From: Candidatus Gottesmanbacteria bacterium
Lineage (GTDB): Bacteria; Patescibacteriota; Microgenomatia; UBA10105; UBA927
NCBI GenBank assembly: GCA_023245355.1
Contig: JAHFKN010000002.1
Location: forward strand, 72,460 to 136,459
Length of the DNA stretch: 64,000 nt
Direction of reading: 5' to 3'
Shown here: positions 2,005 through 19,650 of the stretch, in pieces
Numbering within the stretch: the first letter of the stretch is position 1
How the letters are laid out: every line of letters starts with the position of its first letter
Translations under genes and position numbers: made by a program
Notes under the pieces: generated by a model
Told to the model about the DNA's origin: nothing
The model's database searches: none
Seen by the model: only the letters and a program-made list of their open reading frames with translations

Positions 2005-3370
2005 GTGCGTCCCGATGTTGATAATTTTCCGCCGCATGTATCCCGCTTTCCATTGCATGATCCATATTATTGTACTTATACATCCCGCCGCGCCCGATCA
2101 GAGTCACATTCGTAAACGTGCTTACGTATTCCTTTATTACGTCAAATGCCTTTTCGTACCCCAAGTAATATGCAGGATATGCATCTGCCTCACGGACTAC
2201 GAAACTTCCGACAAGCTTCTGGTCGGAAAGCAACCCTGCGGATGTAAGCTCGGAATATGCAAAGTGTTGAAGATAGGTATCGGTCTCATGCCACAATCGA
2301 TCTTCTTTAAAAACAAAATATTCGACGGAAAGCGCGTGAGTTTTCCGTAAAGACGCGTTCGGTTGGAAATTATTATAATTTGTTACCCTGGCCATTTGGA
2401 AATCAGGGGAATGGATATACAACCACTGATCGGGAAACGGACTCGCCCCGCGTACGAGCAGATTTACCGTAATATGGTCACGATACCGCAGGCGCCGTGC
2501 AGCAGCCAGAACCGTTTTAGGCGGGGCGGGGGAGAGGGCAGTGATAAATGCCGTAATCGGCATACTGGAAAACACATGTGCGGGGGTTTCCGTTACCCGT
2601 TTACCGTGCTTTATATAATCCACACGGATTATTTTTCTGTCTTTATGATGAATACCGGTGACATGGCTCTGATACCGGAACGTAACGCGCTCCTTTCCGA
2701 ATGTTTCTGCCATGCGGGTATACATCTGTCCGCTGCCCCGTACCGGATAATAAAACGATCGGACCAGACTTTTCGGATCGGCCGGCGGCCTGATATTGAA
2801 CGCTGCAAGAACAAGCGACACAACACTCAGATTTTGAATCCGTTGCACTGCCCATTTTGCGCTGATCCTGTCACAGGATACGCCCCATACTTTTTCTGTA
2901 TATGTCTTAAAAAAAATGGAGTAGAGCCTGTACCCGAAGCGTGCAGTAACCCACTGTGTAAACGTTTCGGCAGGCGGCCGGAACAAACGGAGTTTTGCCG
3001 CAAGATAACTGAAAACGCTCAATATCACATCTTTCGGTCCGAGTTTTTTCATCACATCCCACGCGTCGAGAGGGTACGAAAACAGCTTGCCGCCATACAG
3101 CACCCGGGTTAACCGATGTACCGGATGAAATCCCGCACCCAGGGTTTTTTTCCATAATGAATCTATGGCCGGATTTTTCGTATAAAACCTGTGCGGGCCG
3201 ACATCAAACCAATGACCCTGAAAAAAAACACTCCTCGCGAGACCGCCGGGATGGGTATTCCGGTCCAAAACGACAATATGCTGTTTCTCTTTTTCTTTTT
3301 GAAGGGTCAGGGCGCAGGAAAGGCCGGCAGGACCTGCTCCGATAATAACGATGCGACGCATGCTAGCCAT
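1955..3370 (-). CDS. FAD/NAD(P)-binding oxidoreductase (amine-oxidase/UDP-galactopyranose-mutase-like fold)
   Basis: The N-terminus has the dinucleotide-binding motif IVIIGAGPAGLSCA. The C-terminus has GRGGMYKYNNMDHAMESG, which resembles the UGM/amine-oxidase C-terminal motif. Confidence 0.6.
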   Translation of the reverse strand: MASMRRIVIIGAGPAGLSCALTLQKEKEKQHIVVLDRNTHPGGLARSVFFQGHWFDVGPHRFYTKNPAIDSLWKKTLGAGFHPVHRLTRVLYGGKLFSYPLDAWDVMKKLGPKDVILSVFSYLAAKLRLFRPPAETFTQWVTARFGYRLYSIFFKTYTEKVWGVSCDRISAKWAVQRIQNLSVVSLVLAAFNIRPPADPKSLVRSFYYPVRGSGQMYTRMAETFGKERVTFRYQSHVTGIHHKDRKIIRVDYIKHGKRVTETPAHVFSSMPITAFITALSPAPPKTVLAAARRLRYRDHITVNLLVRGASPFPDQWLYIHSPDFQMARVTNYNNFQPNASLRKTHALSVEYFVFKEDRLWHETDTYLQHFAYSELTSAGLLSDQKLVGSFVVREADAYPAYYLGYEKAFDVIKEYVSTFTNVTLIGRGGMYKYNNMDHAMESGIHAAENYQHRDAHDLWSINEDGKYLEEK

Positions 3371-3382
3371 TGTAGCATGCTA

Positions 3383-3388
3383 TAATCG
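3383..3388 (+). promoter_or_regulatory. TATAAT -10 hexamer in divergent intergenic region upstream of sulfotransferase gene
   Basis: A perfect TATAAT lies 28 nt upstream of the ATG at 3417. Confidence 0.3.
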
Positions 3389-3416
3389 ACTTCACAGCAG
3401 AAACTTTCCTATACTC

Positions 3417-4127
3417 ATGGGCACATCCGGGCGACTGATTGTCAGCTTCCATATCACAAAATGCGCCGGCCAATGGCTCGCCAAATCCATACGCGATAAT
3501 TACCCACCTAACGCCAGTACATTTCTTTATCAAACACGCCGCAACCCGTCGTACGAGTCTCTTCCGTTCCTCCGGGCATATTTTTTTTTCCTGCCGAAAG
3601 CCCTCCGGCAAACGCTCCGCATCATTCACGGACACGGCGCATTTTGGGGAATTCACGAATATTTTCCTGACCGGACAACAGAATACAGCGTCATGCTGCG
3701 CGAGCCGGTCGCACGGACTATTTCCCATTATTACTATTTCCGGAGGTCACCCGGAGCCCGCGATTCAAGAAAAAGCCTGTTTGATGAACACGGGAAGCTC
3801 AGAACGCTTTCTGACTGGGTGACCCATACGCCTTCGGCCCAGAATCACATGGTCCGGTTTCTGTATGCGCGCTTATTTCACCGGGAAATTGAAGGGAACG
3901 TCACCGAACGTGAATATCGTGAGACGCTGCGGCGTCTTAAATCTTTTGCATTCGTCGGCCACATTGACAGGCCGGGGGATAAAGAGAAATTATTAACGTT
4001 TCTTGATATAAAAAAACCGGCCCGGCCGGTTAACAAATCCGTTCGGCACTCCGTGCCGACCATAGCTGACCTAGAACGCATTCAAAAACTGAATGAATTC
4101 GACATAAAACTCTACGCGGAAACGTAA
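3417..4127 (+). CDS. sulfotransferase family protein
   Basis: A 5'-PSB-like motif FHITKCAGQ and a 3'-PB-like motif LREPVARTISHYYY (RDPxxRxxSxY) are present. The start is set at the MGTSG ATG after the divergent promoter. Confidence 0.55.
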   Translation: MGTSGRLIVSFHITKCAGQWLAKSIRDNYPPNASTFLYQTRRNPSYESLPFLRAYFFFLPKALRQTLRIIHGHGAFWGIHEYFPDRTTEYSVMLREPVARTISHYYYFRRSPGARDSRKSLFDEHGKLRTLSDWVTHTPSAQNHMVRFLYARLFHREIEGNVTEREYRETLRRLKSFAFVGHIDRPGDKEKLLTFLDIKKPARPVNKSVRHSVPTIADLERIQKLNEFDIKLYAET

Positions 4128-4154: not shown

Positions 4155-4253
4155 TTATGAGGCTACGGTAGCAAACGCGGTGAGCTCAATCTTCTCTGAA
4201 GTCTTTGCCGGTTTCTTGTATGACTTCTTGACTGGCGCTGTTATCTGTTTCAT
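4155..4253 (-). CDS. unannotated 32-aa ORF (MKQITAPVKKSYKKPAKTSEKIELTAFATVAS), candidate RiPP precursor peptide
   Basis: AGGAGG sits 7 nt upstream of the ATG, the best SD in the region. The ORF lies 36 nt downstream of the PqqD-like gene on the same strand and ends in Ser. It is absent from the ORF track because it is under 60 aa. Confidence 0.35.
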   Translation of the reverse strand: MKQITAPVKKSYKKPAKTSEKIELTAFATVAS

Positions 4254-4288: not shown

Positions 4289-4585
4289 TTACCGATTGTC
4301 AACAACAAAAAGCTTTCCGCTGCCCGATTCTGATTGTATGAATGCGATGACATCTTTTTGTGCCTGCTTTACGGAAACATCATACGAAGAGGCTACCGCC
4401 GCAATAATAGCTGACACCTTCCTGGGACTCTTAAGAAACTCCCATATAAAACTACCGACGTCATTATACGTATGAAGGATCATATGGGAATCGTCAAAAA
4501 CGTAGAGCGTTTCACCTACAACCCTAGTCGCGGCCTCCGGATTCCTGCGGATTTTGGTTTCTTCCCGTACTGAGTCTTTCTTCAT
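4289..4585 (-). CDS. PqqD-family protein (RiPP recognition element, lasso B1-like)
   Basis: The 98-aa protein has the core LYVFDDSHMILHTYNDVGSFIWEFL...AIIAAVASSYDVSVKQAQKDVIAFIQ, which is typical of PqqD/RRE proteins. Confidence 0.7.
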   Translation of the reverse strand: MKKDSVREETKIRRNPEAATRVVGETLYVFDDSHMILHTYNDVGSFIWEFLKSPRKVSAIIAAVASSYDVSVKQAQKDVIAFIQSESGSGKLFVVDNR

Positions 4586-5433
4586 AATTTGGTAATCAGG
4601 GCAAGAAATTTTTTACTTCTGCTGAATTCCAGATTGTAATGCCGGTAAAATCTGGATGTAAATAATTTTATCCCAAGTGACAGAAGAAATAAATAGCGGG
4701 GGGAATACTCAATGAACTTGAGATTCGGCCGGAGATGCCGCTGTAGCCTCGACAGTGTTATTGACCTCGGAACAGGCACGAGCACATCCTGTTGTTGATC
4801 TGTATGACGCAGCCACAGGCATTTATCAAGCGGATATCTGCCCGTTACGGAAACCTGTATGTTCGGATCAAAGGGGTTTGCAATAACCGAATACCCGTTG
4901 TTCTCGGGGATAACAACGGTAATATCATCGGAAAGCTGCGGTGCCTGTGATAACCTCGCGATCGTCGATTTTCCGACGCCCTGCCTGCCGATAAATACAT
5001 ACGCGTTTTTCCCTATAACGACGGAGGACGCGTGCAACATAAATCCTCCCTGTTCCAGGATATGAAAAAAATACAGCATGGAAAATATCGGGTTCAGCCC
5101 CCGCGCAGTCGGTGCAATGCGGAACGCCCCTTTCCAGCTTTTGATGTTAATTTCTCCTTTTGCCGGCCGTTCCAGCCGAAGACTCAACATGTCACCCGTT
5201 TGACGCACTGCATTCGGTTCTTTCGTCAATGTTGAGTCGACGGTAATATCCAGATACATATGGCTTGTAACAGTAGCGTTGCTCTTGGGAGGCTCGAAAC
5301 TCTTTACTACTGCATAGAACGCGTCGGACGACCCGCGGAGCATCACGTGGATACAAAGATTATCAGCAATAATCGAAAAACGGCGGATATCAGACATACC
5401 GGTGTAAATATGTAATAATCTTTTTTTCCGCAT
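4582..5433 (-). CDS. HPr kinase/phosphorylase C-terminal-domain-like protein (putative peptide Ser kinase)
   Basis: It has the P-loop GRQGVGKST in an HprK-like context. GAGGA precedes the ATG at 5433, and there is a 4-nt overlap with the PqqD gene. Confidence 0.55.
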   Translation of the reverse strand: MRKKRLLHIYTGMSDIRRFSIIADNLCIHVMLRGSSDAFYAVVKSFEPPKSNATVTSHMYLDITVDSTLTKEPNAVRQTGDMLSLRLERPAKGEINIKSWKGAFRIAPTARGLNPIFSMLYFFHILEQGGFMLHASSVVIGKNAYVFIGRQGVGKSTIARLSQAPQLSDDITVVIPENNGYSVIANPFDPNIQVSVTGRYPLDKCLWLRHTDQQQDVLVPVPRSITLSRLQRHLRPNLKFIEYSPRYLFLLSLGIKLFTSRFYRHYNLEFSRSKKFLALITKL

Positions 5434-6376
5434 CCGTCCTCAGCCGGCGCAACAATAATTCACCCGATGCATTCATGTTCCGATACGGTCTGACGGAAAT
5501 GCCGACCGCATCAAATAGTGTATTCATAGATTTTGTCCGGGATCCGTTCATAAGCTGATACGTAAGGAGACGCAAATGAAATGAAGTAAACGCGCGAATC
5601 ATCCGCTCCGTGAGGACTCCAACTGTAGGTTGTGAATGCCTGACACGAATTGTATCAAGGGACTCTCCCCAATACAATTCGCCGGTCATATAGGCATCAA
5701 AGTGTTCTTCCAGCCGGCGCGGGGATATAGTGACCGATATATCGGTTCTCCGTATCCTAAATCCCATATGGTTCAGCCTGACGCTGAATTCCATGTCGTC
5801 GTTATAGCGAAGCACGGTAGCCCCCAATTGTATGCCGCCGCTTTGCCTGTAGGCACGGCGCGTAACCGCATAAAACGGTCCCTGGAATATCTCCGGCCGC
5901 CATCCCCGGGTTGCCTGCGACAATCGTTTCCGCCGTCCGACCAGCGTCGTGTACATAGTGCGTTTTTTGGTACTCCACCCGGTATATATGTCCCAGGGGA
6001 ATACAAAGGATCCGTATATGCCGTCCGTTTTCGGCTTGTTGATCTCATTCCATACGTCATGGACAAACGCAGGGGACACCCGGGAATCCGCATCCAATTT
6101 AACAAGCACACGGCTATCAAGCGCTGCTTCAAAACCATGCTTTGTTGCCTCTGCAATCCCGCGTACAGGTTCATGCAGCAGGAGATAGGGAAGCGCTAAT
6201 TTCCGGCACCACTCCGTAACCGAACGAACTGTACGGTCACGGGATCCGTTATCGACAATCACCAAACGGAACGGGGGGTGCGGTTTATGCTGCACGACAA
6301 ACTGTCGTAACATTTCACCGATAATCGGTTCTTCATTCAGAACAGGCACGATAAGTGAAATCGGATATGGTGTCAT
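5390..6376 (-). CDS. glycosyltransferase family 2
   Basis: The N-terminus SLIVPVLNEEP...LVIVDNGSRDRT is characteristic of GT-A family 2. Confidence 0.7.
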   Translation of the reverse strand: MTPYPISLIVPVLNEEPIIGEMLRQFVVQHKPHPPFRLVIVDNGSRDRTVRSVTEWCRKLALPYLLLHEPVRGIAEATKHGFEAALDSRVLVKLDADSRVSPAFVHDVWNEINKPKTDGIYGSFVFPWDIYTGWSTKKRTMYTTLVGRRKRLSQATRGWRPEIFQGPFYAVTRRAYRQSGGIQLGATVLRYNDDMEFSVRLNHMGFRIRRTDISVTISPRRLEEHFDAYMTGELYWGESLDTIRVRHSQPTVGVLTERMIRAFTSFHLRLLTYQLMNGSRTKSMNTLFDAVGISVRPYRNMNASGELLLRRLRTDAEKKIITYLHRYV

Positions 6377-6379
6377 AAC

Positions 6380-7294
6380 CTATGAACTCTTCGGCTTATA
6401 CGGTGTGACGCGCCAGCGCATCGAAGTTATATCGGTATCCTGCAGATGGTGTTTTGTGCCATACGGTGCACGATACCAGTGACCGACATACGCATCCGTA
6501 AGATTATTCTTTTGTGTATCTTCAAGCCGGGAATTGTCGATAGCGCGGGAAACGGACCGTCTGCTTTGTAACACCGAATCCCTGCCTCCTGCCACGACGA
6601 CGATATTCTGCACACGCGCGGCATCTTCGGGATGCTGCGGAAATACCCGTACGAATGCAAAATAGGTTCTGAGAATCGCCGCAGTTGATCGCCAAAGCCA
6701 TGCCCCTTTTCCTGTTATGGGACCGATATGATTTATGACAAGATATCCGTCGGTACGAAGTATGGTCGCTATTTTTTGAAATGACTCCGTTGTATACGTG
6801 GAAAGCTCCTGAGATGAAAGCATCCCGGGAAATAGCACCGATCCGGAATCCGCATCCGGCCAGTACAGGTTCCCCATGGTGATATCTACAAATATCAAAT
6901 CGAAATGGCGCGTTGTACGGAGGCGGTTTACGTCATCACGTGCAAACCGGCATATGACCTCCATATTTTTGCGGAACCCATGCCTGTGTTTCCGTATAAC
7001 ATCAATAACCACATCATCCGCTTCCACTACCCGTACCAGGCACTCAGGGTATGTTGCCGCAAAATAGTCCGAGCAAACAAATGCGCCGCCTCCCAGATGA
7101 AGAATGCGGGACGGGGGAGCTCCCAATTCGGCTATCTTTGTATAAATTTTATAATCCCGCCGCTGCATGTCTCCGTCCGCACCCGCACCGGAAGAAATAA
7201 TCCCGCCGCTGTGTGTGTCCAGACGGAATTCCGAAAAAAATCTGGTATGCCCGAAAAACACTGTTGTTAATTTGTTATGTAATTTCATGATCAT
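6380..7294 (-). CDS. spermidine-synthase-like (PABS fold) class I methyltransferase-fold protein
   Basis: Motifs ILHLGGGAF, VVEADDVVIDVIRKH and FDLIFVDI are present. Confidence 0.45.
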   Translation of the reverse strand: MIMKLHNKLTTVFFGHTRFFSEFRLDTHSGGIISSGAGADGDMQRRDYKIYTKIAELGAPPSRILHLGGGAFVCSDYFAATYPECLVRVVEADDVVIDVIRKHRHGFRKNMEVICRFARDDVNRLRTTRHFDLIFVDITMGNLYWPDADSGSVLFPGMLSSQELSTYTTESFQKIATILRTDGYLVINHIGPITGKGAWLWRSTAAILRTYFAFVRVFPQHPEDAARVQNIVVVAGGRDSVLQSRRSVSRAIDNSRLEDTQKNNLTDAYVGHWYRAPYGTKHHLQDTDITSMRWRVTPYKPKSS

Positions 7295-7953
7295 GCCAAT
7301 CTGTGTATACGGCGGATTTCATCCGTATGCCGGTCAATAAGTTTCCGCACATACTCAGGCCCGAATTTCAAAAGATAATGTGCTGATGAAAACGGGGGGA
7401 CCGAAGGATCGTTCCAATCACTGAAAATAAGCCGGATTCCCGCTGCTTTAAACTCTCTCTCGTTAAGATAGGAGTGTGCCCCCATGCCGGAAATAAATAC
7501 GGTGGCTCCCACAAAATGACATATTTCAATAATACGGGCGACACGATCCTTACTTTTCACCGTAATGTCGCTGCTCCGCAAAAAATTCCTTCTGATGGAT
7601 AACGAATGCAAAATCCATTCCGACATGGCGATATTGAGAGCAGATAAATTCTGCCACGGCCTGCCGTAGATTTCGTCCGGAATTTTTCCGTACGCCATGC
7701 GCAGCGTACTTACGTGTTTTTTCCGCCAATGATCACCGCTTATGCTGACATCCTTTATTTTCTGTCCGTATTTGTAGCGCACCGGAACGGTAAGCCATTG
7801 CCAGGAGTCACCTGACTGTATACGGTTCCTGTTTTGGAACCCGTCCTTTTCGTATTGGACATCATCATAAAAAATATGCGTATCGGAAAGCGCAATTTTT
7901 GCGATATGGCCAAGATACGGCAGGTACTCCGGCTGATGCATGGAAAGTATCAT
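7291..7953 (-). CDS. WbqC-like family protein
   Basis: The N-terminus MHQPEYLPYLGHIAKIALSDTHIFYDDVQYEKDGFQNRNRI matches the WbqC family (PF08889). Confidence 0.6.
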   Translation of the reverse strand: MILSMHQPEYLPYLGHIAKIALSDTHIFYDDVQYEKDGFQNRNRIQSGDSWQWLTVPVRYKYGQKIKDVSISGDHWRKKHVSTLRMAYGKIPDEIYGRPWQNLSALNIAMSEWILHSLSIRRNFLRSSDITVKSKDRVARIIEICHFVGATVFISGMGAHSYLNEREFKAAGIRLIFSDWNDPSVPPFSSAHYLLKFGPEYVRKLIDRHTDEIRRIHRLA

Positions 7954-8975
7954 ACTGTTATATGTGCCGCCTCAGAAAACATTGACTCCCACTCCCGCGC
8001 AATAGTTACCCAGTCATAATAGGATACAGACTGTCTGTTATGCCGGTCGATCCGCATGCGCAGCACCGGATTATTCAGCAGATTCACGGCTGCGTTTACA
8101 AATTTCTTTCTGTAAACCGGAGAGCCGGGTGTTCCCGTAATCAACACGTTCCCCCGGGCAGTTTCCGGCAGTGCTCCCCGGGCAGATGTCACAATGGCGA
8201 CACCTGCCGCACGCGCTTCCAGCACCGTCATGCTGCTCGTCTCCAATTCCGTGTTCGGATACAACAGCACCCCCGCACGAAGCATTGCTTTTGCCAGCTC
8301 CTTCTTCGGAAGAAGAGGGGCGACGGTTACCCCGGGAAGCTGTTTCAGATCAGAAAGAATCCGCTCTGCTTTTTTCGAAACGGCTTCACCATAAAGCGCC
8401 CGGGAGGCAATAACCATGAATGTCGAGTCGGGTACCCTGGCATGAATCTGTTTCCAAATTCCGGACAGATATTCCAGACCATCCCCGTGACCGGACACAT
8501 ACAGACATGAACGCGGATTTTTCTTCGTTTTTCCCTGATACAACAGACTCCTGACTCCGTTTCTGGATATGAAAATTTTTCCTTTAGGAATACCTAGTTG
8601 CCCGTATAATCCCGCCTGAAATTCCGAAATGGCAATCACACGATAGACTGCACGGATAAACCGCCGGAGAGTGACAGGGTGTGTCAGCGGAATAAAAGAC
8701 GGCTCTGTTATTAAGTCGGGAGACCAAAAAAACGTGCAGGGCGCAATCGACGGGTACAGAAGTACGATTGCAGGATTTCGTTTCACCACAAGCATATCTG
8801 CACGGGGCGCTGATCTGAGCTCATCGGGGTGCGTATATAAACGGACGTCATGACCCAACAGACGAAGTGCGTACACCATCTCCAGAACAGCAGTCTCTGT
8901 ACCGGGAAGCGGTGAAGCATCCGGTTTCACATCCCTGTAGGTAATCGGGCTACGGTAGTAGATCGCTATTTTCAT
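7950..8975 (-). CDS. glycosyltransferase family 1 (GT4)
   Basis: The C-terminal motif ETSSMTVLEARAAGVAIVTS is GT-B retaining GT4-like. Confidence 0.7.
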   Translation of the reverse strand: MKIAIYYRSPITYRDVKPDASPLPGTETAVLEMVYALRLLGHDVRLYTHPDELRSAPRADMLVVKRNPAIVLLYPSIAPCTFFWSPDLITEPSFIPLTHPVTLRRFIRAVYRVIAISEFQAGLYGQLGIPKGKIFISRNGVRSLLYQGKTKKNPRSCLYVSGHGDGLEYLSGIWKQIHARVPDSTFMVIASRALYGEAVSKKAERILSDLKQLPGVTVAPLLPKKELAKAMLRAGVLLYPNTELETSSMTVLEARAAGVAIVTSARGALPETARGNVLITGTPGSPVYRKKFVNAAVNLLNNPVLRMRIDRHNRQSVSYYDWVTIAREWESMFSEAAHITV

Positions 8976-9633
8976 ATGCGGATGCAGTACGGCCGGGGAG
9001 CAGGCTGCCTATTTTGGAAAGCAGGGATTTGATTTTATATTTCCACGGATAAAAATCCACCAGGTGGGAAATGAATACGGGTTTCTCCGAACGTTTCATG
9101 ATAATGACCATGTTTGGCATATCTATCGGTACAAACACATAGTCGGTCCGGTTTTTCCGTATCCAGGATAAAACAAACTGGGTAGATTCATACGTGGCGT
9201 CATGAAATACTATATATCCGTTCGTTTCGAGCATCAGGTCAGAAAAATAAAAATCCAGGAAAATCTCATCAAACCTGTGCCCGCCGTCAATAAAAATAAA
9301 TTGAAATGTTTCACCCGCTTTTGAAAGGGCGGGGAGCACGAAGTGCGAATAATCCCCGTAAAACGTGAGGCGCGTACGGAATCCGAGCCGGTCAAGGTTA
9401 AATAATCCCAAATACCGGTACCGCTTTTGAAACGGGTCGATTACTCTGTGACGAGCTCCCGTCGCGTGCATGATATACGCTGCGGAATATCCGAACCCGA
9501 GTCCTATTTCCAGCGTTTTTTTGACAGCATGCTTTGTGATGAAGTCGTGCAGGAATTCCGCTTCATTTCCTGCGATAGAAGAAATACGGTATTGTTTCGG
9601 AATAACGATGGTTTGTTCAATGAATGGAATCAT
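8950..9633 (-). CDS. class I SAM-dependent methyltransferase (CmcI/TylF-like)
   Basis: Motifs LEIGLGFGYSAAY and FIFIDGGHRFDE are present. Confidence 0.55.
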   Translation of the reverse strand: MIPFIEQTIVIPKQYRISSIAGNEAEFLHDFITKHAVKKTLEIGLGFGYSAAYIMHATGARHRVIDPFQKRYRYLGLFNLDRLGFRTRLTFYGDYSHFVLPALSKAGETFQFIFIDGGHRFDEIFLDFYFSDLMLETNGYIVFHDATYESTQFVLSWIRKNRTDYVFVPIDMPNMVIIMKRSEKPVFISHLVDFYPWKYKIKSLLSKIGSLLPGRTASAYENSDLLP

Positions 9634-9636
9634 ACG

Positions 9637-10113
9637 CTACCTGCCTGACACTGCCTTGCCCAGTTTATCTATGAGCGCAAACATCCACCCCCGGCATAGA
9701 TAATACATCCGCATCCGGTCCGCATACCTTTTCCCGTATGCATCCTCAAGTGTTATCACGCTTCCGATGATAGCCGGTCTTGCAATCGGTGCATCGAGCT
9801 TTCGCGCATTGTCACCCATAAGATACCACCTATCCTGCCTTCTGGCGATGAGGCGGTGCATATAGAACAACCCGCTGCTGTAACAGAGCAACAAATCTCC
9901 CGGCTTGGGAACGGTTGTTACCGGTCGCACCACAACAAAATTGCCGGCGCGGGCTGTCGGATACATGCTCCCTGAAATAATTCTGATCCGTGCCGGGCCT
10001 TTCGACCGGATAAACCCGATCATTGCCTTCGCGGCTTTCCCTTTTATCGTTGCTGTTTCCATACGTACAAAGCCGCCCGTCACATTCCGAGAGCTGCCCT
10101 TCCCATGAACCAT
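9637..10113 (-). CDS. S26-family signal peptidase I-like serine peptidase (SipW/TraF-like)
   Basis: It has box B SGSMYPT, KPGDLLL and box E MGDNARKLD. Confidence 0.6.
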   Translation of the reverse strand: MVHGKGSSRNVTGGFVRMETATIKGKAAKAMIGFIRSKGPARIRIISGSMYPTARAGNFVVVRPVTTVPKPGDLLLCYSSGLFYMHRLIARRQDRWYLMGDNARKLDAPIARPAIIGSVITLEDAYGKRYADRMRMYYLCRGWMFALIDKLGKAVSGR

Positions 10114-11222
10114 ATGATTTTGGGCCGGAGGAGCCGCCCATGCGGAACCAAATCACGGAGTAGTGTATCCAAAATGCCGATATCAGTAAATACGCGCTGT
10201 GCCCATTTGTTACGTGCATGATGCCATGCCTCCATCGATACACGCACCACAATAAAATGACGCAGAAAAAAATTCAGGTACGTACGAAAAGCCGGCGACA
10301 GCCCGAACAGCGCACGGACGGAAGAGGGAAGGGAAATCTTATAAAATACTGACCCCGCTTCTGCGATAAAAGAAAACAGTGTATACCACTGATATTCATT
10401 CAATAGGGCATAAAGCCGTCTGCGGTCCGCCGGACTCAGGGCCAGCAGGGAATGTACAATCTGATAGAGCGTATGCATGCCGAATCCCAAATCGTTGTAC
10501 CAAAAGCTTACCGCCAAATAGAACACATAATACGGAGGATCGGATACGCGCTTGCTACTTTCTTCATGTGTATATACGAGCATGTCGTGCGTTAATCGCT
10601 TTATCATGGTCATACGTTCATAAGACATGTCGCCGAAATGGGGATGCGCTACAAGCGTATGAATATCTATCCGGATACCGGAATGCGGGTTAGAAACGGT
10701 GCACTCCTTTGGCGGATATCGTTTCAGTGTATACCCCCGCTTTACATACCGGCGTACCAGCCCGTCACAGGCGCTGCCGGAAACAAGAACGTCAATATCC
10801 GAACTCACGTTTTCCCGGGAAAGAAAACCAGGGTGAAACGGACTGGTTTTATAAAAAACGGCGGTATACCGTCCGCGTCCGATGACTGATACAAGCGTCC
10901 GCAGCTCTTTGAGCTTTTTCCGGCAGTCTGACATCGCCGTAAATTCCGCTCCCATAAGCTGCTTCATAAATGAGTCGGATATATGACGCCGGCAGAATAC
11001 ACAATGAATATAATGAAACACGTTTCCGTATGCTTTGTTATAACTTGCAAGCCACAACAGCTCATGTTCCTGCTGCAGGGAAAGCTGGGGGATGTGCGGG
11101 CAAGCGCGTGATTCCGTGCTTACGATAGTCTCCCTCAGAACTGAGACGGTATCATTTCCGTCAATTGTATATGACTGTTTCATGGAATGTGATCCGCCGG
11201 AGTATAATCGATTACGTTTCAA
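10080..11222 (-). CDS. nucleotidyltransferase-fold protein (PF14907-like)
   Basis: It contains G[FS]...(x12)...SDIDVLV, a minimal NTase signature. This family co-occurs with HprK, PqqD and sulfotransferase genes in RiPP loci. Confidence 0.45.
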   Translation of the reverse strand: MKRNRLYSGGSHSMKQSYTIDGNDTVSVLRETIVSTESRACPHIPQLSLQQEHELLWLASYNKAYGNVFHYIHCVFCRRHISDSFMKQLMGAEFTAMSDCRKKLKELRTLVSVIGRGRYTAVFYKTSPFHPGFLSRENVSSDIDVLVSGSACDGLVRRYVKRGYTLKRYPPKECTVSNPHSGIRIDIHTLVAHPHFGDMSYERMTMIKRLTHDMLVYTHEESSKRVSDPPYYVFYLAVSFWYNDLGFGMHTLYQIVHSLLALSPADRRRLYALLNEYQWYTLFSFIAEAGSVFYKISLPSSVRALFGLSPAFRTYLNFFLRHFIVVRVSMEAWHHARNKWAQRVFTDIGILDTLLRDLVPHGRLLRPKIIWFMGRAALGM

Positions 11223-11268
11223 TGTTTCACGATACTACAATAAAGTAATTTTTGTGTCTAATAAACAT

Positions 11269-12195
11269 ATGATAAGCGTCATTATTGCTACCAAAAACCG
11301 CCGCACACACCTGTTAGACTGTCTTTCATCGTTATCGGAAAACAGTGTATCAGATTTTGAAGTAATCGTTGCGGATCAGAAGCTGCCGCGTACCCCGCTT
11401 CCTGAATCCGTTTATAACAAACTCAAGCGCGTTACGCATGTTTTTGTCCCGCAGGGCGGAAAATCCGTAGCATTAAACCATGCAATCCGAAACGTTCATG
11501 GAACCATCGTTGCCTTTACCGATGACGATTGTATCGTTCCGAAAAATTGGGTGCAAAACATTCAAACCTATTTCCGTTTACACCCTGATGTTGCCGGTGT
11601 ATTGGGAAGCGCCAAGCCGTACAGAAAATATGCTCATCCCGGTTTATACTGTCCCGCCGTATACATACACCCGCGGCCGTATCTGCTCGTGAAGCCTCCG
11701 TATAAATCCTCAAAAATCGGCTTCGGGAATAACAATGCCGTGCGTCTTAACGCATTACGTCAGACAGAAGGGTTCCGTACGTGGCTCGGACACGGATATA
11801 CGCCGGGTCCTGCGGAAGACGCAGATATGGTTATCCAGCTGCTGCTTTCTGGACAAAAACTGGCGTATGAGCCGTCGATTGTTGTCATGCATAACCGTTG
11901 GCTGACTGCACAGGAATTCAGAAAACAGCATCTGCGCTACACATTCGGAGAATATGCCTGCATGGGATACTACGCCGCGCAAGGCAAACAATTTGCCGGT
12001 TCCGTTTTAAAACGGAAGTATGCTGCAGCGTTTTCCACGTTCATCGTTGCCATCCGCAACATATTATCGAAAGGCATCAACAGGAAAACGACCGGAACCG
12101 CATTCTGGAAAGCGGCCGAACCATGGATAGGAGCGGCCGGGATGATCTATGGGTGGTATCATGCTGTACATATCAATCCGCGCCCTTCCCTATGA
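11269..12195 (+). CDS. glycosyltransferase family 2
   Basis: MISVIIATKNR and FTDDDCIV are present. The 5' extension at 11092 was rejected because it would overlap the divergent gene. Confidence 0.7.
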   Translation: MISVIIATKNRRTHLLDCLSSLSENSVSDFEVIVADQKLPRTPLPESVYNKLKRVTHVFVPQGGKSVALNHAIRNVHGTIVAFTDDDCIVPKNWVQNIQTYFRLHPDVAGVLGSAKPYRKYAHPGLYCPAVYIHPRPYLLVKPPYKSSKIGFGNNNAVRLNALRQTEGFRTWLGHGYTPGPAEDADMVIQLLLSGQKLAYEPSIVVMHNRWLTAQEFRKQHLRYTFGEYACMGYYAAQGKQFAGSVLKRKYAAAFSTFIVAIRNILSKGINRKTTGTAFWKAAEPWIGAAGMIYGWYHAVHINPRPSL

Positions 12196-13115
12196 ACGTA
12201 AGCGTCATTATTTCGACAAAAAACAGACCGGATCAGCTGATTTGCTGCCTCCGCTCGCTCATACGAAACTCGTTGGCTCCGAAAGAAATTATCGTGATCG
12301 ATCAGAGTGACACCTCTGTTCCGTTACAGTCTTTCGTCCAAAAAGCCGGGCGTCAACATGTCCGCATCAGACACATCCGGTCTTCCGGAGGAAACTTAAG
12401 CCGCGCGAGAAACGAGGGGGTCCGCCTGGCGGCAGGGGACATCTGCGCCTTTACGGATGACGACTGTATCGTATCCGACAGCTGGATTTATGAAATTGCG
12501 GATTCATTCCGCCGTTATCCCTCTGTTTCGGGCGTCTTCGGTTCAACAAAACCGTATCAGCCGTCGCGCCGCAGAAATATGATCTCTCCCTGCATAATCG
12601 ATCATAAAACGCCCCGCGTAATTACTAAACCCACACAACACTGGGACATGCTGGGGTTCGGAAACAATATGGCGTTTCAAAAAAAAGTATGTACTGATAA
12701 TCAATTCCGGACATGGCTCGGCGCCGGTTCCGTTTCCAAAAGTGCGGAGGATGCCGAATTTGCGCTGCGTTTACTCATTCAGGGAAAAACGCTGCTGACA
12801 AGCCCGAAGCCGGTCGTATATCACGATAAATGGCTGACGAAAAAAGAGGCAGCGGAAGCGGACCTCTTTTACACCAGAGGTGAGGCTGCGTGCTACGGAT
12901 ATTATTCCTTTTTGGGATTCGCGTTTGCTGATCATGTTATCAGATCAGATATAGCCCGTTTCGGTATGCAGATCAGGCGGAAAGTTGCCGGCGCTGACAC
13001 AGCGGTCTCACTGATATATGAGGCGCGGCTGTTTAAAGAAACGGTGACCGGCGCCTGTATCGGATTTCTCAAATCCCGTACGCAGCCCCTGAACATGCCG
13101 CGCATTGTGTCATAA
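12192..13115 (+). CDS. glycosyltransferase family 2 (tandem paralog)
   Basis: MNVSVIISTKNR is present. There is an ATGA overlap with the upstream GT2, and the two share about 40% similarity (FTDDDCIV, FRTWLGxG, AEDA). Confidence 0.7.
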   Translation: MNVSVIISTKNRPDQLICCLRSLIRNSLAPKEIIVIDQSDTSVPLQSFVQKAGRQHVRIRHIRSSGGNLSRARNEGVRLAAGDICAFTDDDCIVSDSWIYEIADSFRRYPSVSGVFGSTKPYQPSRRRNMISPCIIDHKTPRVITKPTQHWDMLGFGNNMAFQKKVCTDNQFRTWLGAGSVSKSAEDAEFALRLLIQGKTLLTSPKPVVYHDKWLTKKEAAEADLFYTRGEAACYGYYSFLGFAFADHVIRSDIARFGMQIRRKVAGADTAVSLIYEARLFKETVTGACIGFLKSRTQPLNMPRIVS

Positions 13116-14258
13116 AACGGATATCCGCCTTAAAATCTCACGCACTTTTATCTCCCAGCTTTGACGGAATGCCTCACGGCCCTGCATGGTTTGCTTCGAA
13201 TAATTCCACCCGTTCCGCTTCAGGGTACGTATAGACATGACCGCCTGACGCGGGGTACTGACGATATATAGTAACCCGTTTTTCCGGTACGGCTTCAGCG
13301 CCTCTATCTCAGTTGAGATAACCGGCTTTCCTGCAGCAAAATATTCGAGTGTTTTCATCGGAAATGAAAACCGGTTAAACAATAAACTGCTCCGATAGGG
13401 AATGATCCCGACATCTATGCGCTTAAGCACTGAAGGGATCCGGCTCTTCGGAACTGCCGGTGTCCACATTACGTTGGCATAACGGCACAATGATTGCAGC
13501 TGATCCGCTGCAGTATCTGTCTTCCCGAATACATTCCGTTCCAGCGGCCCGATGAACATAAACTGCACGTACGGTAATTGTTTGACAATCTGATCAAGCA
13601 GCGGAAAATCAATTCTGTCGCTGATGCTGCCGACGTAGCCGACCGTAAACGGTTGCGTATTTACACCACGCGGTACTGCGCGGGAAGCTGAAAATAATTC
13701 AGGGGTAAACCCAAGCGGTACGGGCTGCGTATCGCGCCGCTGTTTCCTAAGTTGAGCAGCAAGCGGCACGGAGTTGGCAAAAATCAAATCTGCCTTTCCC
13801 ATGCAAACGTCATGTTCTTTTTTTGCCGCAGGGGAAAAACCCGGATAATAATCAACACAATCGTACAGCTTTGTATACCCCCGCAAAATCCCAAGCAGGG
13901 GGGGAATATGAAACGGTTCAAAAAACCAAACAACCTTTCTGGTATTCCGATACTGTAATGCAAGATATATGTGCACCAGCATCACAACAGATACATACGT
14001 CAGCATCCGAATAGACCGGAAGCGCACTCCCGGCAATAAACTTACCGGACGAAACACAAGGGCTCCGCCGATCGTGCGTACTATCCAACGGTCTTTACTC
14101 AGAAGGAATCGCGGGAAAAAAATTATATCTCCCAAGCTGATGCCGTGCACCGGATGCGCACCGGACACGATCCGCATCGTTTGTAATACATAATCACATC
14201 CGCTTGCCAGCGGAGAATTAAAAAGAAATAAAACGGGTTCCTGATTCATCATCGGCAT
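13110..14258 (-). CDS. glycosyltransferase family 1 (GT4)
   Basis: The C-terminus has GYVGSISDRIDF and LEYFAAGKPVIST. The N-terminal 89 codons of the tracked ORF were judged spurious. Confidence 0.6.
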   Translation of the reverse strand: MPMMNQEPVLFLFNSPLASGCDYVLQTMRIVSGAHPVHGISLGDIIFFPRFLLSKDRWIVRTIGGALVFRPVSLLPGVRFRSIRMLTYVSVVMLVHIYLALQYRNTRKVVWFFEPFHIPPLLGILRGYTKLYDCVDYYPGFSPAAKKEHDVCMGKADLIFANSVPLAAQLRKQRRDTQPVPLGFTPELFSASRAVPRGVNTQPFTVGYVGSISDRIDFPLLDQIVKQLPYVQFMFIGPLERNVFGKTDTAADQLQSLCRYANVMWTPAVPKSRIPSVLKRIDVGIIPYRSSLLFNRFSFPMKTLEYFAAGKPVISTEIEALKPYRKNGLLYIVSTPRQAVMSIRTLKRNGWNYSKQTMQGREAFRQSWEIKVREILRRISVL

Positions 14259-14307
14259 TATATCAAGCGCGTGAAAATAGCGCCCCACTCTGTTACAATC
14301 TCCGCGC

Positions 14308-15300
14308 ATGAAAAAAAAATTACTGCGCGTTGTGATTGTCGGTGCGGGCTCATTCGGCACCAAAAGACTCGCAGCATGTTTGGATCTACCGCAACATTTT
14401 AAAGTGATTGCGGTTATTGACCCTTCTTCGGAACAACGCGCCCGTGTTACCGCTACGTTCCATGTTCCTGCGGTACCGGATTTCCAGTCCCTCAAAGAAC
14501 AGGCGGATTTAGCTATTGTTGCCACCCCGAACCTCTACCATGCCCGCATGAGTGTAGAAGCAATGCGGCGCAACATGCATGTATTATGCGAGAAACCTCT
14601 TGCGACAAGCGTCTCCGATGCGAAAAAAATTGTTGCTGCGTCCAAAAAATATAGGCGGATCGTAAAGACAGGGTCCAATCACAGATTTTTTCACACGGTA
14701 CAGAAAGCCAAAGAACTTTTCAATCAGGGTGCAATCGGAAAACTCCTGCTGTTTAAAGGGAGCATCGGCATAAACGGCTCAAAAGTTTCGCGCAAATGGC
14801 TTCTGGATCCCCAAATGTCGGGAGGCGGCACATTTATCGACAACGGCTGTCATCTGCTGGACATTGCCCGCATGCTCATGGGAAATTTTGCCCGCTGTAC
14901 GGCGGTAATGACCAATAATTTATGGAAAGAGGCAAAAGTAGAAGATATCGGATCTGCAATCTATACGACCAGAGATCACCGGCAGGCAATTATTACCGCC
15001 AGCTGGCTGCAATGGGCCGGATACTTACATATCGAACTCTGGGGAGAAAAGGGATATATCATCATCGACTCAACGACGCACGACACGGTAACCATCGGCG
15101 GTAAAGACGGAATATTCACGACGTACGATTATTCCAATGAGCGGAAGGACTCATACCACAGGGAGCTTTTATATCTTGCCGAATGCATACAAAAAAATAA
15201 ACAGCCGAGTCCTGATGCTGCTGACGGTGCTGCCGTCATATCTATGGTGGAGGCCGCATACACGGCGTCCCGTAAACATATATGGGTGCCCGTAACATAA
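14308..15300 (+). CDS. Gfo/Idh/MocA family NAD-dependent sugar dehydrogenase
   Basis: It has the Rossmann motif VVIVGAGSFG and the motif EKPLA. Confidence 0.75.
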   Translation: MKKKLLRVVIVGAGSFGTKRLAACLDLPQHFKVIAVIDPSSEQRARVTATFHVPAVPDFQSLKEQADLAIVATPNLYHARMSVEAMRRNMHVLCEKPLATSVSDAKKIVAASKKYRRIVKTGSNHRFFHTVQKAKELFNQGAIGKLLLFKGSIGINGSKVSRKWLLDPQMSGGGTFIDNGCHLLDIARMLMGNFARCTAVMTNNLWKEAKVEDIGSAIYTTRDHRQAIITASWLQWAGYLHIELWGEKGYIIIDSTTHDTVTIGGKDGIFTTYDYSNERKDSYHRELLYLAECIQKNKQPSPDAADGAAVISMVEAAYTASRKHIWVPVT

Positions 15301-16394
15301 TTCCGGTTAACCGCCCGTCAGTACCTGCGCATGCAAAAAAATATCTCGATGAATGCGTCCGTTCTGGATGGTTTTCTTCTGAAGGTCCGTTCGTAAAACG
15401 GTTTGAGAATGAATTTGCGCGTTACCTCGGAGTGAAACATGCAGGTGCAACCAGCTCGGGAACTGCCGCGCTTCACCTGGCGCTACTTGCGCTCGGCGTA
15501 GGTCCGGGCGATGAGGTTATTCTTCCTGCAATGACAATCGCGTCGTGTTATTTTGCCATATGGTATACCGGAGCCAAAGCGGTGCCTGTTGACGTAGACC
15601 CGGAAACCTATTGCATAGATCCGGATGTAATCGACCGCGCCGTTACAAAACGCACGAAAGTTATCATGGTCGTTCATCTGTTCGGACACCCATGCGATAT
15701 GGACCCGATCATGATGCTTGCCAAAAAATATAAGCTCAAAGTCCTTGAGGATGCGGCAGAGGCACACGGAGCCGAGTACAAAGGCCGCAAGGTCGGATCA
15801 ATAGGGGATATTGCTATATTCAGCTTTTACGCGAACAAAATCGTGACAACCGGTGAAGGCGGCATGGTGGTATCCAATACCAAAACATATATTGAACGGG
15901 TCAACAAAATAAAAGCCCTCAATCATTCTAAAACCCGGTTCATCCACGACGGAATCGGGTATACGTATCTTATGAGCAACATGCAGGCGGCCGTCGGCCT
16001 TTCCAGTCTGGAGGAAATTGAACGGTCAATCGCAAGAAAACGTACTATGGCAACACTCTATCGCAACCAGCTTTCCGGCATATCCGGCCTTATCCTGCCG
16101 GTAGAAAAATCATGGGCGACAAATGTGTACTGGATGTACGCGGTGCGCATGGATCCGAAGGCTCATCTATCACGCAAAAAGCTCATTGATCTGCTCATGA
16201 CAAAATATGGCGTCCAAACAAGAACCTTTTTTTATTCTCCGCGTACCGCATTCAGAAAACTACAATTATTTAAAACGGATAGATTCCCTGTGGCAGAGGC
16301 GCTGGAACGGAGAGGGTTCTATTTACCGTCCGGACTTGGGAATACAAACATGGAATTTATCCGTACCTCGCATGCTCTTCAAAAATTACTTTAA
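15282..16394 (+). CDS. DegT/DnrJ/EryC1/StrS family PLP-dependent sugar aminotransferase
   Basis: FSFYANKIVTTGEGGMVVSN holds the PLP-lysine region, and the overall fold is DegT-like. Confidence 0.8.
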   Translation: MGARNIIPVNRPSVPAHAKKYLDECVRSGWFSSEGPFVKRFENEFARYLGVKHAGATSSGTAALHLALLALGVGPGDEVILPAMTIASCYFAIWYTGAKAVPVDVDPETYCIDPDVIDRAVTKRTKVIMVVHLFGHPCDMDPIMMLAKKYKLKVLEDAAEAHGAEYKGRKVGSIGDIAIFSFYANKIVTTGEGGMVVSNTKTYIERVNKIKALNHSKTRFIHDGIGYTYLMSNMQAAVGLSSLEEIERSIARKRTMATLYRNQLSGISGLILPVEKSWATNVYWMYAVRMDPKAHLSRKKLIDLLMTKYGVQTRTFFYSPRTAFRKLQLFKTDRFPVAEALERRGFYLPSGLGNTNMEFIRTSHALQKLL

Positions 16395-17682
16395 ATTACC
16401 GCGGTTTATAGCAGGTGCTCTTCTGACCGGCACGGTCCTGTTGGGAGCGCGGTTTTTTTGGTTCACCCGTTCGTTTGCCGGAACACTTCCTTACATGGAT
16501 CAGCTTGAATTGTACTGGCCGTTCATACACAACCCTTCACCTTTGTCATTATTCCTTTATCAATATGGACCGCATAGACAGGGTATGGGGTACATTCTTA
16601 CATACGCGGTTGCCGCCGTCAGTCAATGGAATATTCCTACAGAAATTACCCTGAACGCACTCGTTCAAATTGGTACATGCATCGCTCTTCTTGCGCTCAA
16701 ACGGGCGGTGTTTCACCGCTGGCATATTACGGATATATTTATACCTCTCGTTGTATTTTCATACAGATACACGGAGTCTTTTACTATTGTTCCCAATATT
16801 TCTCTGGCGGTTTTTCCGATATTCCTGACTTTCCTGGGAATATACGTTTGGTTTATCCTTACGACTCCCTGGAAATATGCGCTGACTGCAGCAATTGCGG
16901 TCATCGTATTATTCAGCGGCTTCGGCATGCTCACGTTACCCCTATTTGCGTTACTTATCTGTGTACCGCTGTTTAGATTTCCGAATTCCGATATCAAGTA
17001 TGCGCATATCATAACGCCTCTGCTTATTCTTATTTCGGGAACGTCGGCATTTTTTTATAACTATCAATTTGATCCAGCGGTGTCGTGTCAGGTAAACCCT
17101 CTAATTGACTGGCCGGTATATTCTTCATTTATCGGTACCGAGGTGACCAGCTATTTTATACGGCCGAATTCTCTTCTTCCCCTGCATGGAGAATATTTAG
17201 GATTAACCGTATGGATATCGCTTGGAATACTGCTTGGACTCTCAGTCAATAGCTATTGGCAAAATAATCACCGCTCCTATCATGGCATTCATATCGTGTT
17301 ACTCGGAATACCGGTGTTATTCGCGGCAGCAAGCGCATTTGCACGAACATGCCTGGGCGTCGAGGCCGCGCGTGCGGGAAGATACGCGATTTTTTTCATT
17401 CCCGGATTAATATCCCTCTATTTTTTGCTTCTACGTTTTAAGGGGATGCTAGCACGGGGGACGCTTATCGCGTTCGTGAGTTTGTTTATGCTAAACGAGG
17501 TGGTTGTCTCCCGGGGATACACCGAGGTTGCAAAAAATCATTACCAATCTATGGAGCGTTGGCATACGTGCTACACGCAGCATTCCTCCATACCATACTG
17601 CAACGACGTTACTCAATTCTCTCTTATACCGGCCAGAATGAATACGATGGCCGGGGAAATATTGCGTCATATAGTACGATAA
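16372..17682 (+). CDS. polytopic membrane protein (possible glycan polymerase/flippase-like)
   Basis: It has 10-12 predicted TM helices. The start was trimmed to the ATG at 16372. Confidence 0.4.
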   Translation: MLFKNYFKLPRFIAGALLTGTVLLGARFFWFTRSFAGTLPYMDQLELYWPFIHNPSPLSLFLYQYGPHRQGMGYILTYAVAAVSQWNIPTEITLNALVQIGTCIALLALKRAVFHRWHITDIFIPLVVFSYRYTESFTIVPNISLAVFPIFLTFLGIYVWFILTTPWKYALTAAIAVIVLFSGFGMLTLPLFALLICVPLFRFPNSDIKYAHIITPLLILISGTSAFFYNYQFDPAVSCQVNPLIDWPVYSSFIGTEVTSYFIRPNSLLPLHGEYLGLTVWISLGILLGLSVNSYWQNNHRSYHGIHIVLLGIPVLFAAASAFARTCLGVEAARAGRYAIFFIPGLISLYFLLLRFKGMLARGTLIAFVSLFMLNEVVVSRGYTEVAKNHYQSMERWHTCYTQHSSIPYCNDVTQFSLIPARMNTMAGEILRHIVR

Positions 17683-17712
17683 ATGGACCATCTGTCGGCA
17701 GCAATTCTATAT

Positions 17713-18489
17713 TCATGACTTCGCCGCAAGAACCTCTTTAGCGGCAAGATATAAAAAATATATATTTTGGACTGTATATCTATACCAAAGACGCCGGGGC
17801 TCCTGAAGCAACCGGAACAACCACTCAAACCCTGAGCGTTGTACCCATCGGGGGGCCTGGCGCCGGGTTCCGGCAACAAAATCAAACGCCGCGCCTACCC
17901 CAATATAGACATTGGCATGTGCCATATGTATATGGGCATGCATCCACATCTCCTGCTTCGGCGTGCTTAACCCCACAAATACGACGTGCGGCTTCGCAGT
18001 CCTGATACGTTCCGTAATATGCTTGTCTTCTTCAGGAGTCAATTGACGGAACGGGGGAGCGTACGCTCCGCAAATAATAAGGCGGGGAAACCGAAGGTGC
18101 AAATGCATCGTTAGCGCCGTTAATGTTTCCTGCGTCGTTCCGTATAGATAGATTCTCCATCTTTTTTTCTGAGCTTCATCGCATGACGCGATAAACAAAT
18201 CCGGACCATAAATCCGCTGCGTTTTCGGAAACCCAAGCCACCTGCTTATCCACACAAGCGGCATGCCATCAGGAACGACGAGTGCCGCTTCCGCATGTGC
18301 ACGGAACACCAAAGGATTACGGCGCGATTCCACTACGCCGTGCGCTCCGGTAACGCAGATATACGCGTGTTCTTTTCGTGATATCCACCCCGCTATTTGC
18401 TGTACAACCCCGGAAATAGATCCCGAAAAAAATTTAAGCCCGAACATGTTACATACGTTCATACCATGCATAATGATACTATGACGCAC
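17713..18489 (-). CDS. WecB/TagA/CpsF family glycosyltransferase (GT26)
   Basis: The C-terminus has LSTPKQEMWM and GVGAAFDFVAG, the GT26 signature. Confidence 0.7.
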   Translation of the reverse strand: MRHSIIMHGMNVCNMFGLKFFSGSISGVVQQIAGWISRKEHAYICVTGAHGVVESRRNPLVFRAHAEAALVVPDGMPLVWISRWLGFPKTQRIYGPDLFIASCDEAQKKRWRIYLYGTTQETLTALTMHLHLRFPRLIICGAYAPPFRQLTPEEDKHITERIRTAKPHVVFVGLSTPKQEMWMHAHIHMAHANVYIGVGAAFDFVAGTRRQAPRWVQRSGFEWLFRLLQEPRRLWYRYTVQNIYFLYLAAKEVLAAKS

Positions 18490-18556
18490 TTTTGACTGCT
18501 AAAGTCATTTCTCAAATCAAATTTCGGGTTGTCTGCTTCCGCTACGTACAGTCAGA

Positions 18557-19558: not shown

Positions 19559-19650
19559 ACAAAAAACGATCATCGTACAATACCTCATCCATCGTCGTTT
19601 CAGACGTCCACTTGAACACGCAAAAGAAATACTAAAGAATACGTATCTAT

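Follow-up and report, generated by a model that had tools for sequence, protein, structure and literature searches.

The known enzymes with the signal-peptidase fold are membrane-bound proteases of secretion or regulators that cleave themselves. In type I signal peptidases, a transmembrane anchor lies directly ahead of the catalytic serine. RP4 TraF, which has a Ser/Lys catalytic pair and is exposed to the periplasm, cyclises its pilin; SodX, the maturation protease of nickel superoxide dismutase (Ni-SOD), is soluble and cytoplasmic and acts on one dedicated substrate, from which it cuts a short N-terminal leader. In lasso peptide biosynthesis, a PqqD-like recognition element (RRE) for peptides that are made by the ribosome and modified post-translationally (RiPPs) binds the YxxPxL leader motif at positions −17 to −12 and hands the precursor to the leader peptidase B2, a transglutaminase-like cysteine protease. 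HprK-like kinases phosphorylate the C-terminal serine of RiPP precursors in some lasso clusters, and PsmN-type nucleotidyltransferases (NTases), which are sometimes fused to B2, are needed for the addition of a hexose to that phosphate; sulfotransferase genes also accompany lasso clusters of this kinase/NTase type. Here we describe a gene for a small S26-like peptidase located in a stretch of 64,000 nucleotides (hereafter, the window) from Candidatus Gottesmanbacteria bacterium (assembly GCA_023245355.1, contig JAHFKN010000002.1, positions 72,460 to 136,459 of the forward strand). On the grounds of its genomic context, we consider this enzyme, with a probability of about 0.55, to be the leader peptidase of a 32-residue peptide encoded in the same operon, the cleavage itself being predicted. 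That it is a predicted active cytoplasmic S26B-like protease belonging to a cassette of PqqD-, ScmC- and NTase-family proteins is held with much greater confidence.

The open reading frame (ORF) of the peptidase, 158 codons long, was confirmed and reads ...IISGSMYPT...YMHRLIARR...MGDNARKLDAP.... Both the SMYPT and the GDNARKLD boxes named in the initial annotation are present, and the gene lies, as was also stated there, between an NTase gene upstream and a methyltransferase gene downstream, both on the same strand (Table 1). The real product is probably 141 residues long, 17 codons shorter than the long ORF. This start, Met18 of the long ORF with its ATG at 10062, is preferred because the two closest homologs (P0002, P0003) begin there, because the peptidase gene of a syntenic sister locus (L021) was called from the equivalent methionine, 18 nt past the NTase stop codon, and because stop codons interrupt the frame upstream of it in that locus. 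The 158-residue start was rejected, the N-terminal extension not being conserved in the comparison with L021. Residue numbers given below are those of the 141-residue product; adding 17 converts them to the numbering of the long ORF. The peptidases of the window and L021 are 78% identical, with a ratio of nonsynonymous to synonymous substitution rates (dN/dS) of 0.19, which indicates purifying selection on the gene.

An exhaustive phmmer scan of 1.84 billion representatives yielded 781 relatives of the peptidase; a word-index homolog search made before it had returned only two proteins. The relatives are labelled in their sources as "S24/S26 family peptidase", "signal peptidase I" or "hypothetical". 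An alignment of 48 homologs (A1) was the basis for residue conservation and the profile; the AlphaFold model was likewise built on 48 sequences. The single window sequence scored below the cut-offs of PF00717 Peptidase_S24 (22.2 bits, cut-off 23.3), TIGR02228 "signal peptidase I, archaeal type" (24.8–25.1 bits, cut-off 51.85) and TIGR02754 Ni-SOD protease (19.4–19.8 bits, cut-off 63.25). Among the 48 family members, the model of the archaeal and endoplasmic reticulum (ER) type matched every one, the SipW model 30 and the bacterial signal peptidase I model 29, and weak matches to the Ni-SOD maturation protease model were obtained for 41. The TraF model was found neither among the NCBIfam matches of the window peptidase nor in the list of families matched by its 48 relatives. 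Compared with solved structures, the A1 profile matched human SEC11C (1.8e-11) and SEC11A (2e-10) best, followed by LexA and bacterial signal peptidase I. These relatives were seen only with the profile, because a PDB search with the single peptidase sequence gave just spurious opsin matches (E of about 0.3).

Ser32, Met33 and Pro35 of box B, His69 and Arg70 of box D, and Gly83 and Asp84 of box E were invariant in A1; Asp90 was conserved in at least 90% of its sequences and was invariant in alignment A3. In the published structure of the signal peptidase complex, Ser56, His96 and Asp122 form the catalytic triad of SEC11A, and Asp116 and Arg97 form a salt bridge. According to the alignment with these residues, His69 and Arg70 are predicted to serve as general base and salt-bridge partner, respectively, like their counterparts in ER-type signal peptidases; Asp84 is the predicted structural aspartate and Asp90 the candidate third member of the triad. 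The AlphaFold (AF2) model of the peptidase, obtained with a mean predicted local distance difference test (pLDDT) score of 87 and a predicted template modelling (pTM) score of 0.79, has a beta-barrel core between an N-terminal and a C-terminal helix. Of the 50 PDB matches that Foldseek listed for this model, the top 48 were LexA, SipA, SEC11, LepB, SpsB, UmuD and cI. The modelled fold is that of LexA and the signal peptidases, which assigns the peptidase to clan SF (S24/S26). Because the conserved residues align with functional residues of SEC11A and the model matches belong to clan SF, the enzyme is predicted to be a catalytically intact S26B-like Ser-His-Asp peptidase of the ER/archaeal/SipW type with an Arg70–Asp84 salt bridge. 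A SipA-like pseudo-enzyme was rejected, since the catalytic residues are invariant in the 48 homologs; the features of self-cleaving S24 regulators (LexA, UmuD, cI) were not observed either, as histidine replaces lysine and no helix-turn-helix domain was found in Pfam. The S26 assignment made in the initial annotation is upheld as to the family and the intact active site, its serine and histidine being far from missing on alignment, although the single-sequence scores fall below the curated cut-offs; the evidence at the level of the family is strong.

No hydrophobic segment was found in the window peptidase: the maximum 19-residue Kyte–Doolittle hydropathy over the whole protein was 1.01, and only a helix of about 20 residues precedes the core in the AF2 model. 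N-terminal to the catalytic serine, hydropathy remained below 1.2 in 23 close family members and amounted to 1.8–2.75 in six more distant relatives, four of which are annotated as "signal peptidase I" (archaeal, actinobacterial). The S24/S26-like domain was located N-terminal to a PF14907 nucleotidyltransferase in three fusion proteins (P0216, P0061, P0126) and N-terminal to a GNAT acetyltransferase in two (P0058, P0112). A cytoplasmic location is predicted because the N-terminal anchor is absent and because the family is fused to cytoplasmic NTase and GNAT enzymes; the sequence points to a cytoplasmic peptidase and so to no secretory signal peptidase. In one further homolog (P0029), the S24/S26-like domain is fused to a DNA-binding domain of the Trans_reg_C family.

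The enzyme shares with the ER/archaeal signal peptidases I (MEROPS S26B: Sec11/SEC11A/C, archaeal signal peptidase and Bacillus SipW) the fold, the box B serine, the box D His-Arg pair and the box E GDN...D motif, and these peptidases are the best profile matches of its family in PDB and NCBIfam. Unlike them, it has neither an N-terminal anchor nor partner subunits, scores below their cut-offs and is encoded in a cytoplasmic peptide-tailoring cassette, to an enzyme of which the family is sometimes fused. SodX is likewise a small S26 protease; the likeness is one of functional analogy only, at a score of 19.8 against the cut-off of 63.25. A Ni-SOD domain was not among the Pfam matches of the scanned window ORFs, and the partner genes differ from those of SodX. 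The fold and chemistry are known; what is new is the soluble architecture, the conserved link with an RRE cassette and the fusions to NTase and GNAT. In the literature on PF14907, ScmC, HprK-related kinases and S26 RiPP leader peptidases, we found nothing on this peptidase family.

The peptidase gene is the second of ten tightly packed genes on the reverse strand, neighbouring genes being separated or overlapping by a few nucleotides. The first gene encodes an NTase that scored 20 bits with PF14907 and has a 75%-identical ortholog annotated with this family. Its DxD (DIDLL) motif is invariant across the NTase family and, judged by sequence, corresponds to the D134/D136 pair, which is essential in PsmN; a sequence-profile PDB search with the NTase gave no matches. 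Regarding the tailoring genes downstream of the peptidase, those for glycosyltransferase GT1, the WbqC-like protein, the 304-residue methyltransferase-like protein and glycosyltransferase GT2 mutually overlap or abut (5390..8975). The ScmC-like protein models as a P-loop kinase fold of the PEPCK/HprK type: Foldseek matched its AF2 model with ATP-PEPCK at 1e-7 and with HprK/P at 1e-4, and the sequence-profile PDB search gave P-loop matches only. The best NCBIfam match of the PqqD-family protein was the lasso PqqD chaperone. The whole operon, comprising NTase, peptidase, tailoring genes, ScmC, PqqD and the 32-residue peptide, is syntenic in the sister lineages L021 and L022. In L021, a second PqqD-family gene was located beside a GT2 gene (19608-19874, + strand), about 10 kb past the precursor and beyond the equivalent of the left edge of the window.

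This gene set resembles lasso clusters that combine B2 and PqqD-like B1 with a kinase (K) and an NTase (N) (paeninodin, pseudomycoidin, Bsf). Shared components are the PqqD RRE, the HprK-like kinase, the PsmN-like NTase, a small YxxP precursor with a C-terminal serine and a weakly sulfotransferase-like neighbour. The latter gene (3351-4127, + strand) is convergent on the peptide ORF and has a weak Sulfotransfer_1 match (E 0.034). The NTase is fused to the leader peptidase B2 in some lasso clusters and to the S26-like domain in the family studied here. The proteases themselves are of unrelated folds, B2 being a transglutaminase-like cysteine protease and the window enzyme a Ser-His S26-like one. 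Neither a lasso cyclase (Asn-synthetase-like C) nor a transglutaminase-like B2 was matched among the ten operon genes or the scanned ORFs of at least 150 residues in the region 1–33.9 kb; glycosyl- and methyltransferases are encoded in the operon instead.

About ten neighbourhoods were examined. In four loci with 25–30%-identical homologs (L009, L010, L012, L013), the peptidase gene directly adjoins pqqD in a recurring block of Chloroflexi type. Its gene order is ScmC-like protein, small ORF, Peptidase_C25, S24/S26-like peptidase, PqqD, a protein of about 306–338 residues and, usually, a second C25 peptidase. The ScmC-like genes and small ORFs lie upstream in three of the four loci; the contig of L013 ends before that region. 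The ScmC and PqqD proteins of the distant loci are homologous to those of the window (1e-10 to 1e-13 and 4e-10, respectively), and L010 additionally contains a PF14907 gene. The proteins of about 306–338 residues downstream of PqqD gave no Pfam match and no similarity to the window NTase. The only locus obtained from the metagenome scan (L017) encodes a 27%-identical homolog with a PF14907 gene directly after it, and a 44%-identical homolog (L014) is followed by an ortholog of the window GT1. The association with PqqD, ScmC and NTase is not peculiar to the lineage of the window. The initial annotation would have given up its proposal if the gene were conserved elsewhere only beside sortase or secretion genes; the neighbours were found to be PqqD, ScmC, NTase and glycosyltransferase genes.

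The candidate precursor, MKQITAPVKKSYKKPAKTSEKIELTAFATVAS, is encoded by the last gene of the operon behind a perfect AGGAGG Shine–Dalgarno sequence located 8 nt upstream; it contains a YxxP leader motif and ends with serine. Thirty of its 32 residues are identical in L021, and both changes fall at positions 4-5. A promoter-like site, TTGACA-17-TACTAT (4302-4274, reverse strand), was observed inside the end of pqqD, just upstream of this ORF; the promoter and terminator scan gave consensus-level matches only, which were not clearly above the expectation from shuffled sequences. The small ORFs of the distant loci (RKPYIKPEILHELVLETRAGS..., RKPYHTPAIIHELTLETRAGS..., RKSYTKPEILHELELETRAGS...) and the window peptide (KKSYKKPAKTSEKIELTAFAT...) share the motif (R/K)-K-(S/P)-Y-x-(K/T)-P, that is, K-x-Y-x-x-P, followed by threonine 13 residues after the tyrosine and by a small residue at Tyr+16. 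If the lasso spacing applies, with Tyr12 at −17, the 32-mer would be cut at ...ELTAFA↓TVAS. This register places alanine at −1 and −3, which would match the classic Ala-x-Ala specificity of signal peptidases; the site is proposed because it agrees with both the Tyr(−17) spacing rule and the preference of S26 enzymes for Ala-x-Ala.

The peptidase gene shares its operon with genes for a PqqD-type RRE and a small precursor, a linkage that recurs in the sister loci and, with pqqD adjacent, in the four distant loci, as would be expected of a RiPP leader peptidase in an RRE-dependent pathway. The enzyme is read as the leader peptidase because the operon encodes an RRE, a kinase-like protein, an NTase and a precursor that contains YxxP and ends with serine, but neither B2 nor a cyclase. 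The substrate, cut site, order of steps and modification chemistry that we infer are as follows. PqqD would bind the YxxP leader of the 32-residue precursor. The ScmC/HprK-like enzyme, the PsmN-like NTase and the glycosyl- and methyltransferases of the operon would then modify the short C-terminal core, presumably at the terminal serine by analogy with paeninodin and pseudomycoidin. Finally, the S26-like enzyme would cut off the leader, filling the slot that B2 occupies in lasso pathways. The initial annotation had suggested a leader peptidase for this precursor; intact catalytic residues, the lack of an anchor, the shared operon, the distant partnerships and the NTase fusions now speak for it, a support drawn from context rather than from biochemistry.

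Several observations weigh against this assignment. Read in the same register, the distant precursors have glycine at −1 but arginine at −3, so the Ala-x-Ala argument does not generalise, and these precursors do not end with serine. TVAS, the predicted core, would be an unusually short one. The window NTase and peptidase each score individually below the Pfam gathering thresholds. Some homologs have hydrophobic C-terminal tails, absent from the window peptidase, and may be membrane-tethered. Translational coupling links the peptidase gene to the large Peptidase_C25 gene in the Chloroflexi-type loci, where another protease could therefore remove the leader or C25 itself could be the substrate.

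This coupling also underlies the view that the peptidase acts on a partner protein, by activating a C25 pro-peptidase or processing the NTase, or that it is a LexA-like self-cleaving switch. The C25 genes (gingipain-like, 980–1150 residues) bear Propeptide_C25 and overlap the start of the S24/S26-like gene, the NTase fusions would place such a substrate in cis, and the fold is common to self-cleaving LexA and UmuD. However, the window operon and its sister lineages maintain the peptidase under purifying selection without any C25 gene, and PqqD, ScmC and the small peptide are its constant partners; the active site is Ser-His rather than the Ser-Lys of S24 autoproteases, and the window peptidase has no DNA-binding domain. 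We regard a partner substrate or switch as unlikely. An acyl-enzyme transpeptidase that joins the peptide to an amine, e.g., an amino sugar from the DegT aminotransferase, or cyclises it as TraF does pilin is, in our estimate, clearly improbable. S26 chemistry runs via an acyl-enzyme intermediate, and the glycan locus in which the operon lies also encodes an aminotransferase (15282-16394), a Wzy_C ligase-like protein and many glycosyltransferases; still, hydrolysis is the default of the family, the alternative is chemically possible only, and the amino-sugar genes are outside the ten-gene operon.

Very little credence is given to the view that this is a type I signal peptidase of the ordinary housekeeping or SipW-like kind that serves secreted proteins such as surface-glycan enzymes, even though the best model matches are TIGR02228, SipW and SEC11 and databases name relatives "signal peptidase I". 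The protein has no transmembrane segment, unlike the annotated signal peptidases recovered in the same search, reaches a score of 25 against an equivalog cut-off of 51.85 and belongs to a family with fusions to cytoplasmic NTase and GNAT domains. Transmembrane-bearing, lower-scoring distant relatives (P0195, P0219) occur in unrelated contexts, and one of them adjoins Peptidase_M73/TasA-like genes, as SipW does. Next to no probability remains for a TraF-like conjugative peptidase maturing or cyclising the VirB2/TrbC-like pilins of a type IV secretion system (T4SS) in the window; the initial annotation had named a TraF-like pilin maturation peptidase as its alternative. Like TraF of RP4/Ti, it is a clan-SF enzyme with a dedicated small-protein substrate in the proposed role, and the window also contains T4SS pilin genes: six paralogs of T4SS_pilin (PF18895) that have N-terminal extensions, rather than the eight counted initially, are encoded next to the T4SS ATPases, and no other S26 gene was found in that locus. 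The pilin genes lie about 40 kb away, however, in a separate T4SS locus (~35–53 kb) beyond dnaA/dnaN; the peptidase has neither a signal peptide nor a membrane anchor and so cannot reach exported pilins; its box D residue is an invariant histidine, not lysine; and no TraF model was among the matches listed. Six independent contexts show PqqD, ScmC, NTase and glycosyltransferase neighbours and never T4SS genes.

Around the operon, a large surface-glycan locus (11092-30338) encodes several GT2 and GT4 glycosyltransferases, WecG/TagA, a DegT aminotransferase, a GFO/IDH oxidoreductase, a carbamoyltransferase, two GDSL-like acylhydrolases, a Wzy_C ligase-like protein and an ABC-2 exporter. The genes dnaA and dnaN lie side by side (32508-35163, + strand) and separate this glycan/peptide locus from the T4SS locus; because they adjoin, the region around the origin of chromosomal replication is probably covered by the window. 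The T4SS locus (35166-53000) is of the Gram-positive or candidate phyla radiation (CPR) style. A mevalonate-pathway cluster with HMG-CoA reductase, an HMG-CoA synthase-like gene, thiolase and GHMP kinase follows at 54307-58897 (+ strand).

Table 1. Coordinates of the features of the peptidase operon, of the T4SS locus and of the C25 genes in distant loci (positions in the window unless a locus is named).
Feature	Coordinates	Strand	Remarks
PF14907 (NTP_transf_5) nucleotidyltransferase, first gene	10080..11183	−	DIDLL metal-binding motif
S24/S26-like peptidase, longest ORF	9637..10113	−	158 residues; Pfam and NCBIfam matches
Peptidase, probable true coding sequence, second gene	9637..10062	−	141 residues from Met18 of the long ORF; homolog starts, closed upstream frame in L021
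Catalytic Ser codon (predicted), box B GSMYPT	9967..9969	−	Ser32 (Ser49 in 158-residue numbering); invariant in A1; aligns with SEC11A Ser56
His69-Arg70 codons, box D MHRL	9853..9858	−	invariant in A1; align with SEC11A His96/Arg97
Box E GDNARKLD	9793..9816	−	residues 100-107 of the 158-residue ORF; Asp84 and Asp90 correspond to SEC11A Asp116 and Asp122
S-adenosylmethionine-dependent methyltransferase (Methyltransf_24)	8950..9633	−	starts 3 nt past the peptidase stop
GT1	7950-8975	−	tailoring gene
WbqC-like protein	7291-7953	−	tailoring gene
304-residue methyltransferase-like protein	6380-7294	−	tailoring gene
GT2	5390-6376	−	tailoring gene
ScmC-family P-loop protein	4582..5397	−	GRQGVGKST; precomputed PF27840
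PqqD-family RRE (peptide chaperone)	4289..4585	−	PF05402 at 3.6e-12
32-residue candidate precursor, last gene	4155..4253	−	Shine–Dalgarno sequence, YxxP, C-terminal Ser
M23 peptidase	36171-38357		T4SS locus
VirB4-like TraG P-loop ATPase	38364-40286		T4SS locus
PrgI-like protein	40951-42222		T4SS locus
Coupling-protein-like ATPase	42447-44630		T4SS locus
531-residue polytopic protein	48948-50543		T4SS locus
Six tandem T4SS_pilin paralogs	50580-52808		T4SS locus
Peptidase_C25 overlapping the S24/S26-like gene	L009 6534-9995; L010 6993-10001; L012 6579-10004; L013 1250-4204

Taken together, the genes of the operon allow a further proposal, which we put forward tentatively and at rather low odds as a whole, namely, that it makes a ribosomal glycopeptide of a new kind without lasso machinery. 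The 32-mer held by PqqD would be phosphorylated by the ScmC/HprK-like kinase, probably at the C-terminal serine, and then glycosylated via the phosphate by the PsmN-like NTase; GT1, GT2, WbqC and the methyltransferases would extend the sugar, with the peptide serving as a glycan primer or anchor. Release of the leader by the soluble S26B-like enzyme would found an unrecognised class of RiPP leader peptidases, and a widespread one, as its homologs number in the hundreds and come from lineages of Chloroflexi type and from other uncultured ones. Should the role of the peptidase as a leader peptidase be confirmed, a new protease family would join the few RiPP leader peptidases known, and a large unnamed set of annotations as "S24/S26 family peptidase" or "signal peptidase I" would prove misleading. 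It would also reveal a lasso-independent use of the pair of HprK-like kinase and PsmN-like NTase, and surface-glycan loci of uncultured bacteria may then be a source of phosphoglycosylated peptides.

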